NCBI GenBank assembly: GCA_030688545.1
Contig: JAUYHT010000006.1
Span: forward strand, 1 to 32,000
From: Candidatus Iainarchaeum sp.
GTDB taxonomy: Archaea > Iainarchaeota > Iainarchaeia > Iainarchaeales > VGJJ01
Reading direction: 5' to 3'
DNA length: 32,000 nt
In this document: piece by piece, positions 14,926-18,012 of the stretch
Layout: each line of letters opens with the position of its first letter
Position numbering within the stretch: position 1 is the first letter of the stretch
Translations under genes and position numbers: made by a program
The notes under the pieces: generated by a model
What the model saw: the letters and a program-made list of their open reading frames with translations, nothing else
Told to the model about the DNA's origin: nothing
Databases searched by the model: none

Positions 14926-15690
14926 ATGCTCGTGTCGCTGGGAGGGGGGGTAACATTTCTCCTTAGGAATCCCATCCTCTACATTGGAACGGTCTTCCTA
15001 TTGCTAATTCAAGGGGGAGTACTCCTGATCGCCGAGCCGTTTATCCAACCCCTCCTGGATTTGGGGACGCTAGACATCCTTTTCACCCACCCCCTGAATG
15101 GAATTATTGTCTTACTCGCTTTACTGATTAATGCGAGCATTGCAGTGTTCATCGTGGCCTGGGTGGCCCAGAGGATGCATCATCCTTCCTCCCAAGGATT
15201 AATAGGAAAGGCCGTGCAGGGTGCGCTCGTGATGGGATTGGCAGTAGGGGCGTGGGCGTTCATCCTATTAGGATTGGCATCGGGATCGTTGAGTGATAAT
15301 AGTCTCATTTCTTTGGTGAGCCTGGTGGCAGGAATAGTATGGATGGCCCTGGGTATTTTTGCCGTGGTTAAATGGATGTTTGTTTTTTCTTTTTTGGGAA
15401 CAGGTTCCTCATTGAAGGAAGCCCTGGCGCAATCGTGGCATTACACCCAGGGGAGGTGGATAACGACGCTTATTCTTGGATTGGTTTTAGTCGTGATCGG
15501 GGCCCTATTTGGAGGGATTACTGAAATTCTCGCACTCGCTTTTGAAAATGATATTTTGATCCAAATCGCCATCGCCGCGGGGGTGCAAGCCATCCCCACG
15601 GTATATGGCGCCGCCGTCCTCGCGCAGGCCATGCGCCTCTACACATGGCCCGCCGAGAAGCATTTTGCTAACCATGGGAAGAAGGGGTAG
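14926..15690 (+). CDS. polytopic membrane protein (about 6-7 TM)
   Basis: From ATG 14926 (M67 of the tracked ORF) the sequence is continuously hydrophobic-helical. The stop at 15688-15690 lies 3 nt before the ATG of the SMC/Rad50-like gene. Confidence 0.65.
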   Translation: MLVSLGGGVTFLLRNPILYIGTVFLLLIQGGVLLIAEPFIQPLLDLGTLDILFTHPLNGIIVLLALLINASIAVFIVAWVAQRMHHPSSQGLIGKAVQGALVMGLAVGAWAFILLGLASGSLSDNSLISLVSLVAGIVWMALGIFAVVKWMFVFSFLGTGSSLKEALAQSWHYTQGRWITTLILGLVLVVIGALFGGITEILALAFENDILIQIAIAAGVQAIPTVYGAAVLAQAMRLYTWPAEKHFANHGKKG

Positions 15691-15693
15691 GGT

Positions 15694-18012
15694 ATGCGTC
15701 TCGCCCGATTACGATTGAAGAATTTCAAATCATTCAAACAAGCCACCCTTCCCTTTGCCAATGGGTTCACGGCCATCGCGGGGGCCAATGGTAGCGGGAA
15801 GAGCAACATCATGGATGCCCTCCTCTTCGTTTTAGGAGAAACGAGCTTGAAATCCTTGCGCGCGTCCCGGTTAACAGATTTGGTGCTTACAGGTTCCCCG
15901 GATGGGTATGCGGTGGTAAACTTAACCTTGGAGGGGAAGGAAAGGAATTATGAGATTTCGCGCACCGTGGACAAGCATGGGAAATCCGTGTACCGGATGG
16001 ATGAGAAGCGCGTCACATTGGGAGAAGTCCAAAATCTCCTGGGAGAATTGGGATTGCGCGTGGATGGCCATAATCTCGTGGGGCAGGGAGATTTGTTGCG
16101 GGTCATTGACATGAATGATTATCAGCGCCGGGAAATGATTGATGAGATTGCGGGACTGCAGGAATTTGAGGAGAAGAAAAATGAGGCGTTGAAAGACCTG
16201 GATAAGGTGGAGCGTAAGATCAAGGATGTGGCTATTGTCCTCAATGAACGCATGGCGATCATCCAACAGCTCGCCAGAGAAAGGGAGGTGGCGCAACGAT
16301 TCACGGCCTTGGAGGACGAATTGAAAAAATCAAAAGCCACTATTCTTCATCTGGAAGAAAAGGAATTATCCGCGCGTCTCCAGGTCCTCGTGGAAAGTCA
16401 GGTCGAATTAATAGGGAAGAAAGAAACCGCACGGGAATCCCAGATGAAGAGTTTGTCGGAGGTTAAACAGTTAGAAGAGGCCTTTTCGGGTTTGGACAAA
16501 CAGGTCATTGGAATCAAGACGCAGGCATTTGCGGGAGATGAAAGGAGTGTGGAGAAGGTTGAGGCCGATATCCGGGTGAATGAGGAGCGAATTTCCCAAT
16601 GCAAGAAACGGTTGGAGGAGTTGGCCCACCAGCGCGTGGAATGGCAATTGGATCTCACGGAATGGGAGAGACTATCCCAGAAATATCCGGCTATTGATGA
16701 GGAAAAAAGGAAGATTGGAAATGAAATGGGTCAGCTTGAAAAGGGTATAGTTGAGCGTGGAGGGATGGCTTATGCCCACCTTCATAGTATTCAGGAATTG
16801 AAGAAGGCCAAATCCAATTGCCCGGTATGCGCCCGGGAGCTCAGCGCCAAAATCAAAACCAAATTGCTTGCGGAGAAGGAAACATTGCACCAGGAGGCGC
16901 AGACCCAAACGAATGCGTTGAAATTAGAGCGTGACCGTTTGAGGAAGAAATGGGAAGAGGTACAAGGTGAAGCGGTTCTCCTCACCCAATTGGCCAAGAG
17001 CGATGAAAAAGTGAAACAGCTCAACACGGATGAACAGCGGGTCGAGAAAGCCTTGAAAGGATGGGTTAGAATAACCCCCCAGTTAGAGAAGGAAAGGGAC
17101 GCCGCCGCCAAGAGACAAGCCTCTTTCGTGAAAGAGAATGAAGCCCTCCTGGGGAAGCGGGACAAAATAGGGGAGCGTCTCCATTCAGAGAGAGAGAAAG
17201 AGCGGGCCTTCCAGGAAAAAGTCATCCGATTGGATGCGCAGCTCTCCGAGATCAAGATTGAGCAATCCAAATTCGACACGAGGTTGCAGGACGTGAAAGA
17301 GGAGATGCGGAATTACCAAGGCATTCCTCCCCTGGAAGGGGGGGATGGCCCCACCCTCAAGAAACGCGTGCCGGTAATCGAACATGAAATGCGGCAATTG
17401 GGCACCGTCAATCTCAAATCGCTCGAGGACTTCGGCCACTATGAGAAAGAGGTCATGGAGATCAAGCGGCGTTCGGATACCTTGGATGAGGAAAGGATGG
17501 CAGTCCTTGACCTAATCCAAGGGATTGAAACTAATCGTACGGCGGCGTTCATGATGTGCTTTGATGCCATCAATGCCCATTTCAACCGGTTGTATGAGAG
17601 TTTCTTTGATGGAACCGCGCGATTAAGCCTGTCTAATCCTGAGAAACCATTAGAGTCCGGCCTCCTCATTGAAGCCATGCACGGGGAGGATAAACGGATG
17701 AAGGCCATCGATTCCATGTCGGGAGGAGAGAAGTCATTGACCTCCCTGGCGTTCATTTTTGCCATCCAATTGTATGAGCCCGCGCCCTTCTATTTCTTTG
17801 ATGAGGTGGATGCCGCGTTGGACATGACTAACTCAAAGAAAGTGGGGCATTTGATAAAAGAGATGTCCAAGGCCTCCCAATTCATCGCCATCACCCACAA
17901 TGATGCGGTGGTGAAAGTGGCCGATCAGATTTTGGGAGTCGCCAAGCGCAACACCGCCTCTACTGTGATCGGGTTGAAATCGGCGGCGGAAGCACGAACT
18001 TTGGAAGCGTGA
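15694..18012 (+). CDS. short SMC-family ATPase with Rad50-type CxxC zinc hook
   Basis: N-terminal [40 protein letters not shown] and [27 protein letters not shown] are SMC-like. The C-terminal signature [36 protein letters not shown] and QFIAITHN are also SMC-like. Heptad-rich arms. [13 protein letters not shown] sits at residues 372-384 of 772 (CPVC = 16819-16830), where a hinge domain would be expected. Confidence 0.85.
   Translation: [772 protein letters not shown]

Follow-up and report, generated by a model that had tools for sequence, protein, structure and literature searches.

We analyzed a 32,000-nucleotide (nt) stretch of DNA from Candidatus Iainarchaeum sp. (assembly GCA_030688545.1, contig JAUYHT010000006.1, positions 1 to 32,000 of the forward strand), hereafter called the window. 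An open reading frame at 15694..18012 (+) encodes a 772-amino acid (aa) protein that matches Pfam SMC_N with 214 bits (E 2e-63), and its product is an archaeal-type SMC with a hook in the position of the hinge and shortened arms (hook-SMC). Directly upstream, at 14926..15690 (+), lies the gene of a 254-aa polytopic membrane protein with about six transmembrane segments, as judged from hydropathy and alignment. We consider it likely that the 772-aa protein is the product of the chromosomal smc gene of a small-genome DPANN archaeon, in which the hinge was replaced by a Rad50-type CPxC zinc hook and the arms were shortened.

The domain layout of the 772-aa protein was derived from the invariant columns of a family alignment (65 sequences, 35-60% identical to the window protein) and from an AlphaFold2 (AF2) model, which was built as a monomer on 65 homologues and reached a mean predicted local distance difference test (pLDDT) score of 81.8. 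The N-terminal half of the ATPase head, placed by both the invariant columns and the secondary structure of the model, comprises residues 1-154 (15694..16155, +) and includes Walker A (15781..15807, +) and the Q-loop residue Q131. It is followed by the N-terminal coiled-coil strand, residues 155-371 (16156..16806, +), for which the model predicts helices at 155-280, 286-330, and 334-371. The apex, residues 372-384 (16807..16845, +), carries the sequence CPVC at 16819..16830, as checked by translation. The C-terminal strand, residues 385-638 (16846..17607, +; predicted helices 385-434, 436-537, 552-568, and 576-638), leads into the C-terminal half of the head, residues 639-772 (17608..18009, +), which was placed by its invariant columns and contains the signature SGGEK (17719..17733, +), Walker B FYFFDE (17788..17805, +), the D-loop, and H735. 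In the model, the two termini form a single globular head, helices 155-371 and 385-638 run antiparallel to each other, and two cysteines sit on the short loop 372-384 between the strands. The C-terminal head half is the most conserved part of the protein, and the residues G30, G35, and K36 of Walker A, Q131, S676-K680, D703/E704, D706-D710, and H735 are invariant in the alignment.

The type of the head was assessed with profile and structure searches. Among the NCBIfam models, TIGR02169 SMC_prok_A scored highest with 483.7 bits, followed by SMC_prok_B with 386 bits, whereas the Rad50 models gave at most 96 bits, the archaeal SMC-related protein (ASRP) model 82, RecN 73, and arcadin-4 43. In phmmer searches of the PDB, archaeal Smc structures came first (Pyrococcus Smc, with 311 bits for the P. 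yayanosii entry 5XEI, then 280 and 255 bits), ahead of bacterial Smc (177-154 bits, with 177 for B. subtilis Smc), the cohesin and condensin heads (155-116 bits), Rad50 (64 bits), and RecN (32 bits). The best Foldseek match of the AF2 model was also 5XEI, which comprises the head, coiled coil, and joint of P. yayanosii Smc (E 1.9e-33). Identity to canonical SMCs was 28-43% in the neck and 12-17% in the distal arms. The original prediction, made from the sequence before any database search, had described the head motifs as SMC-type rather than Rad50-type and the protein as about 400 residues shorter than a canonical SMC; every motif it quoted is present, and the canonical archaeal SMCs recovered here are 1121-1196 aa long, in agreement with both statements. 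Judged by sequence and predicted fold, the head is that of an SMC sensu stricto, a complete ABC head of the archaeal type.

The center of the protein was examined in the same manner. The Pfam hinge model (SMC_hinge, PF06470) was not found in the 772-aa protein at E <= 0.01, although it gives 108-109 bits on two hinge-bearing relatives (L017, with 108 bits, and L024). Thus, the absence of a hinge proposed earlier was borne out, including in the region around residue 380. CPVC occupies residues 376-379 of the 772-aa protein (0.49 of its length), at the apex of the predicted antiparallel coiled coil. C376 and C379 are invariant and P377 is at least 90% conserved among the 65 sequences, and the arm columns around them are poorly conserved, so that the hook forms a local conservation peak against the surrounding arm. 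The Pfam Rad50_zn_hook model matched residues 366-400 with 21.7 bits, which is below its cut-off of 24.3. When the central 101 aa were searched against the PDB, the best matches were two P. furiosus Rad50 hook structures (1L8D, E 1.5e-5), and the segment was aligned to the Rad50 hook IEELKKAKGKCPVCGRELT of 1L8D. A profile of the hook region built from 29 family members increased the similarity: its best PDB matches were 1L8D (E 9.4e-14) and 6ZFF (1.5e-13), aligned gap-free over 90 columns, and it also matched the human RAD50 hook 5GOX (E 5e-5), with RING fingers next, near 1e-3. The Pyrococcus Rad50 hook quoted in the earlier reading, KGKCPVCGRELT, agrees with that of 1L8D, and the hybrid architecture proposed there, in which an SMC head is combined with a Rad50-type hook and the hinge is missing, was confirmed. 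The similarity to Rad50 covers about 40 residues on each side of the cysteines, which favors acquisition from a Rad50 gene over convergence. On these sequence grounds, the most likely origin of the hook is a copy taken from a Rad50 gene.

The lengths of the two strands were then compared across the family. The long class (n = 76, about 985-1028 aa) measures 457.4 ± 1.5 aa from Walker A to the first hook cysteine and 403.2 ± 1.8 aa from the second cysteine to SGGE. Eleven members are short and fall into two types, one with 346-349 + 297 aa (the group of the window protein) and one with 352-364 + 314-315 aa. Compared with its relatives of about 1000 aa, the window protein has an N-terminal strand shorter by about 110 aa and a C-terminal strand shorter by about 106 aa; across the short members the step is about 95-110 residues per strand. 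SMC arm lengths have been reported to step by about 100 aa, with modes at 341 and 238 aa (PMC5344682), and the step of the hook-SMC arms matches this published value. With head boundaries taken from the AF2 model, the long and short classes would roughly correspond to the 341- and 238-aa modes, and the loss of about 105-110 aa per strand amounts roughly to one superhelical period of the coiled coil. A long antiparallel intramolecular coiled coil of SMC-type length is thus apparent from the model and from the arm classes. The short proteins do not group together in the tree: P0001, P0002, P0003, and P0005 form no clade within their own close group, P0028, P0032, P0038, and P0061 lie elsewhere, and P0110 stands apart. 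The arms were therefore shortened more than once; their lengths change only by such steps, on at least three separate branches.

The members of the family are named Diapherotrites or Iainarchaeum in NCBI records, and a protein identical to the 772-aa product is on record as 'Candidatus Diapherotrites archaeon'. When one genome per GTDB species was scanned, hook-type genes came up only in records labeled Iainarchaeum, 'ainarchaeum', or unclassified archaeon. Of the 120 closest homologues, 115 have a single CxxC at a relative position of 0.47-0.56, more than chance would give, and the Pfam hinge was detected only in the two most distant of the 120 (P0118 and P0120). In an exhaustive HMMER search of 1.84 billion cluster representatives (clusters at 50% identity), a central CPxC was seen in 33 clusters, about 10 more lacked both hook and hinge, and canonical hinge-bearing SMCs followed thereafter. 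The proteins observed without hook and hinge are P0024, P0027, P0031, P0109, P0240, P0242, P0245, P0246, P0248, P0253, P0255, and P0263; P0024 and P0109, the two included in the tree, fall within the hook clade. No family member was found on a viral contig. A viral or mobile origin was considered and rejected, as the IMG/VR matches were P-loop fragments only.

The phylogenetic position of the family was determined with a neighbor-joining tree of 111 proteins (656 well-aligned columns, corrected p-distances, 200 bootstraps). The hook clade together with L023 was recovered in 197 of 200 bootstraps, in 163 after addition of the hinge-bearing L017, and in 168 after addition of Micrarchaeota. The family therefore nests inside archaeal SMC; placement of the head within Rad50, which would have contradicted the earlier reading, was not found in this tree, which has no Rad50 outgroup. 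The genomic slot gave a consistent picture. The gene for ribosomal protein L44e (14463..14747, -; Pfam Ribosomal_L44), which is divergent from the membrane-smc pair and serves as a marker of the slot, occupies this position in 12 hook loci as well as in the hinge-bearing L017, whose gene order (divergent rpl44e, membrane gene, smc) is that of the hook loci. In addition, L017 and the hook-type L014 each have an intein (Intein_splicing + LAGLIDADG) whose start immediately follows the Walker A GK. The nesting within hinge-bearing DPANN SMCs, the slot shared with L017, and the intein shared by L014 and L017 together indicate an in-place swap of hinge for hook, in which the resident smc gene was remodeled. 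Inteins with LAGLIDADG lie within the SMC genes at L014:4231-8928 and L017:4036-9381 and also in P0102 and P0228, and the RecJ-family gene of L002 carries an intein too. The sister group of the hook clade consists of SMCs of about 1080 aa (L023:5438-8674, also P0290 and P0296), whose center is a non-coiled segment of about 100 aa that fails both the Pfam hinge model and a custom hinge profile. This segment may be a decayed hinge and a possible intermediate.

The membrane protein gene upstream of smc was characterized next to the hook-SMC gene itself. The junction between the two genes reads TAG GGT ATG, so that the smc ATG lies 3 nt past the stop codon of the 254-aa multi-pass membrane protein, as had been stated at the outset. 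The NCBI annotation gives a 295-aa version of the protein, whose start would be at 14803; the ATG at 14926 agrees with the N-termini of 15 homologues and is preceded by a TATA-like TTATATAC and a GGAGG-like stretch. The membrane gene is probably cotranscribed with smc. Its product contains a conserved K..F..PAL...K.AL..SW.FT motif and very short soluble segments, and its Pfam matches (GPDPase_memb or DUF7847) are weak. With a profile of the membrane protein, a homologue was found directly upstream of smc in 14 of 14 hook loci (the window, L001-L007, and L010-L015), that is, in all profile-scanned hook loci that have upstream DNA, and also directly upstream of the hinge-bearing smc of L017. By gene order, a 272-280-aa gene occupies the same upstream position in L103, which is of the second short type, and in L104, the locus of the hookless P0031. 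In the Micrarchaeota, Woesearchaeota, and Nanoarchaeota loci, the profile gave no match up to 6 kb from smc. A large-database search with the membrane protein returned only 6 matches, probably because hydrophobic words swamp the word index. The L017 pairing indicates that the linkage between the membrane gene and smc predates the hook and is not tied to it. Therefore, of the coupling between the two proteins that the original prediction had suggested, the conserved gene order holds in all loci examined and the membrane gene is co-conserved with smc, but a physical partnership, though possible, is unsupported, and the pairing is independent of the hook.

A second conserved neighbor is encoded at 13240..14289 (-). 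This 349-aa winged-helix protein is lineage-restricted and syntenic with hook-SMC in 12 hook loci. Its family comprises proteins of 273-373 aa; Pfam domains are absent from all 100 database homologues, and those few whose source is named are labeled Diapherotrites or 'archaeon'. The AF2 model of the protein (pLDDT 88.5) shows a winged helix, a helical region, and an alpha/beta domain. A Pfam search of the 349-aa protein gave weak winged helix-turn-helix (wHTH) matches only, and Foldseek matched the model only to wHTH regulators of the MarR, MntR, and PadR types (E >= 0.012); the JetABC entries 8AS8 and 8Q72 appeared at a probability of 0.3-0.35, which is noise. The protein was considered as a candidate kleisin and rejected as a recognizable one, since hhalign against the ScpA alignment gave a probability of 0.2%.

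The search for partner genes covered the loci themselves. Pfam searches of the window and of the 8-10 kb around smc in nine related loci detected no Mre11, ScpA, or ScpB family, in line with the earlier observation that no adjacent Mre11, ScpA/B, or kleisin gene was present. A hidden Markov model (HMM) of ScpA was built from 16 scpA genes that immediately follow smc in haloarchaea, Aenigmatarchaeota, Hadesarchaea, Methanolobus, and Acetothermia, and it recovered all the expected scpA genes. It gave no match in any Iainarchaeota locus, the window included, or beside the canonical SMCs of Micrarchaeota, Woesearchaeota, and Nanoarchaeota. In known SMCs, kleisins bind the head-proximal necks. The neck conservation in the aligned sequences is consistent with a retained kleisin partner, although it is no proof of one. 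Around the pair, a RecJ-family gene lies downstream of smc in the close relatives, and FtsZ, Lon, and ribosomal genes are near smc in other loci; the hook-smc neighborhood is a housekeeping context.

These results support the reading of hook-SMC as a reduced chromosome-organizing SMC that dimerizes through zinc, which was one of the two interpretations offered by the original prediction, through head similarity, phylogeny, and positional orthology. In this mechanism, two hook-SMC protomers would share one Zn2+ ion through four cysteines and form a constitutive dimer, whose heads would engage on ATP. The complex would organize and segregate the chromosome by DNA entrapment or loop extrusion, and the ring would probably be closed by a kleisin encoded elsewhere in the genome. 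Several observations weigh against this proposal. The 772-aa protein falls under the equivalog cut-off of TIGR02169 (483.7 vs 729.4 bits), a shortfall that is consistent with the missing hinge and the shorter arms. The hook clade on its own was recovered in just 122 of 200 bootstraps, and the tree is distance-based and contains no Rad50 or ASRP outgroups. Hook and hinge are both missing from about 10 related clusters (905-949 aa), suggesting that the hook is dispensable in some relatives. Zinc binding and dimerization are predicted from the sequence, and the structural model is of a monomer only. The ScpA HMM, applied to the loci, finds nothing in the window or in any hook locus; as the canonical DPANN SMCs also lack an adjacent scpA, this non-linkage is not evidence of absence. 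Finally, the scan covered the loci, and a second canonical SMC or a Rad50-Mre11 pair may be encoded elsewhere in these genomes.

An alternative that we regard as unlikely is that hook-SMC belongs to a lineage-specific, membrane-coupled machine, in which the membrane protein and possibly the winged-helix protein would be physical partners that tether or load the SMC at the membrane and might replace the kleisin. The upstream, co-directional membrane gene of the 14 hook loci, with spacers of 3-61 nt (3 nt in the window), fits such a machine, as does the gene in the same position in L103 and L104, and the pairing is kept where the downstream genes differ (RecJ or Lon). The presence of the winged-helix family in 12 hook loci, its lack of Pfam domains and its restriction among named members to Diapherotrites or 'archaeon', and the failure to find scpA nearby point in the same direction. 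However, the membrane gene is also paired with the hinge-bearing smc of L017, so that the pairing is older than the hook. Loops and tails of the membrane protein are very short, and it evolves fast: its identity between genomes is only 12-29%, against 36-60% for the SMC. The winged-helix protein resembles neither ScpA nor, above noise, any kleisin structure; the canonical SMCs of Micrarchaeota, Woesearchaeota, and Nanoarchaeota are likewise without an adjacent scpA; and the necks of hook-SMC are conserved as in kleisin-binding SMCs. That hook-SMC, the membrane protein, and the winged-helix protein form a kleisin-free, lineage-specific chromosome-segregation machine that replaces Smc-ScpA, and perhaps Rad50, in reduced genomes appears more doubtful still.

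The Rad50-type hook itself raises the idea of a Rad50 analogue, that is, an ATPase for double-strand-break tethering and repair whose Mre11-type nuclease is encoded elsewhere. A HerA-like ATPase gene 2-6 kb upstream of smc in many loci, the Cas4-like nuclease at the start of the window, and the RecJ-family gene downstream in close relatives would suit this role, but the HerA-like gene is separated from smc by unrelated genes and does not share an operon with it, and no Mre11 or Metallophos gene was found in any Pfam-called locus. The head reaches at most 96 bits on Rad50 equivalog models whose cut-offs are 700-1087 bits, its PDB score for Rad50 is 64 bits against 311 for Smc, and both its slot and its clade are common to hinge-bearing SMCs, which makes a Rad50 analogue very improbable. 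Membership in ASRP (coalescin ClsN, Sph1/2), acting alongside or instead of SMC, is attractive in that these proteins are SMC-superfamily ATPases with a zinc hook and without a hinge (PMC9389158). Nevertheless, the ASRP model NF045487 gave 82 bits against a cut-off of 300, compared with 484 for SMC_prok_A; the ASRP clade lies outside SMC (PMC9389158), whereas the hook-SMC family nests inside archaeal SMC; and the model has 593 positions, whereas most hook-SMC members are about 1000 aa long with the arm length of canonical SMC. We therefore consider an ASRP assignment extremely improbable. The other interpretation offered originally, an SMC-like defense sensor as in Lamassu (LmuB) or Wadjet (JetC) whose effector would be the membrane protein, has a close to negligible chance of being correct. 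The PADLOC models mad3 and LmuB gave 199 and 62 bits, respectively, and a PIN-domain gene (12600..13001) and the Cas4-like gene are present in the window, but the control set, the housekeeping SMCs of Halobacterium, Micrarchaeota, and Aenigmatarchaeota, scored the same or higher (mad3 149-199 bits and LmuB 83-105 bits, with JetC matches for Halobacterium). No LmuA or JetABD partner was found, the membrane and winged-helix proteins have no PADLOC match, no family member occurs on viral contigs, and even between deeply diverged genomes the gene stays in one chromosomal slot, with ribosomal, Lon, RecJ, and FtsZ genes around it.

The preferred reading, a resident chromosomal smc with a hook in place of its hinge, was compared with known systems. 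A hinge is generally regarded as a defining feature of SMC proteins, and it has been proposed to act in DNA binding and in the entry of DNA. Hook-SMC resembles the canonical archaeal Smc of P. yayanosii and P. furiosus (5XEI, 5XNS, 4I99; TIGR02169) in head sequence and fold, ATPase motifs, conserved neck and joint, long antiparallel coiled coil, and tree placement, but differs from it by the missing hinge, the CPxC at the apex, arms that in the window protein are one step (about 105-110 aa per strand) shorter, and a score under the equivalog cut-off. In haloarchaea, Aenigmatarchaeota, and Hadesarchaea, scpA lies directly downstream of smc, whereas none is adjacent to hook-SMC. With Rad50/SbcC (the P. 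furiosus hook 1L8D and 6ZFF, and human 5GOX), it shares a homologous apex hook and the head-coil-hook plan, but it has neither a Rad50-type head nor a linked Mre11, and its pattern of arm length and joint is SMC-like. The ASRP proteins (ClsN, Sph1/Sph2; Yoshinaga et al. 2022, PMC9389158) are likewise archaeal SMC-superfamily ATPases with a hook for a hinge, but they are shorter and form a separate clade outside SMC. The hinge-less SMCs of marine Actinobacteria (Sussfeld et al. 2025, PMC12153180) are also true SMC relatives that have lost the hinge; they are bacterial and without CXXC, whereas hook-SMC has a hook in the hinge's place.

The closest counterpart is an engineered one. The Smc(Zh) chimera and Mini-Smc constructs (Buermann et al. 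2017, PMC5344682) combine SMC head and arms with a Rad50 hook and show arm steps of about 100 aa, as hook-SMC does; hook-SMC differs in being natural, fixed across an archaeal lineage, and derived from an archaeal rather than a bacterial SMC. B. subtilis carrying an Smc with the P. furiosus Rad50 hook grew normally, and the chimera was under the same arm-length constraints, with only periodic arm lengths being functional (PMC5344682). According to published overviews, the SMC superfamily has two hook-bearing families, Rad50 and ASRP (PMC9389158), and swaps between hinge and hook have been reported as engineered constructs (PMC5344682; PMC6969161). The sequence mining in PMC5344682 was seeded on hinge alignments, so that hinge-less SMCs would have been missed. 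No natural true SMC with a zinc hook is described in the literature searched, although a prior mention elsewhere is possible; the same literature offered nothing usable in the way of SMC, ScpA, or Rad50 inventories for Diapherotrites. Within that literature, the hinge-to-hook SMC architecture was found otherwise only as a laboratory-built chimera. Hook-SMC is a natural counterpart of Smc(Zh), which argues that what the apex must provide is constitutive dimerization and not the hinge fold. It would also document a domain exchange between two branches of the SMC superfamily. Arm lengths that stay within about 2 residues across 76 diverged proteins lend independent support to the arm as a tuned mechanical unit, and the 772-aa form, being unusually small for a natural SMC, could be convenient for structural and single-molecule studies. 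The relatives without hook and hinge raise the question of how their apex would dimerize.

Other reduced SMCs were seen in the course of the searches. In Hadesarchaea, 752-753-aa SMCs (L008:5992-8250 and L009:5992-8253) have no Pfam hinge and no CxxC and are followed directly by scpA; each looks like a hinge-less SMC that keeps its kleisin. In candidate phyla radiation (CPR) bacteria (L032, L040, L042, and L083, from Kuenen-, Uhr-, and Harrisonbacteria), 742-750-aa SMCs were negative with the custom hinge profile, and that of L032 was negative with the Pfam hinge model too. Aenigmatarchaeota have SMCs of about 830 aa with short arms and a normal hinge.

Further genes of note in the window are as follows. 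A Cas4-like PD-(D/E)XK nuclease fragment lies at 3..656, a protein with a class-III (archaeal pilin-type) signal peptide at 1314..1859, and a 1010-aa HerA-like DUF87 ATPase with a long acidic N-terminus and no transmembrane segment at 2562..5594. The toxin-like PIN-domain protein at 12600..13001 (-) is located between conserved neighbors, and the equivalent position in L002 is occupied by a HicAB pair. Convergent with smc, at 18064..18816 (-), is the gene of a hydrophobic protein of about 250 aa with an HEIVH motif, which has a weak DUF7937 match and is conserved only in the closest relatives (L001-L003 and L007). Between 22732 and 28893, an IspE-like GHMP kinase, IspH/LytB, Dxr, IspD, and IspF make up a near-complete bacterial-type methylerythritol phosphate/deoxyxylulose phosphate (MEP/DOXP) set, a pathway described as 'almost absent in archaea' in a 2024 survey (PMC11052028). 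At least part of the set recurs near smc in relatives (L001-L003), namely the GHMP kinase and LytB and, in L003, also Dxr.

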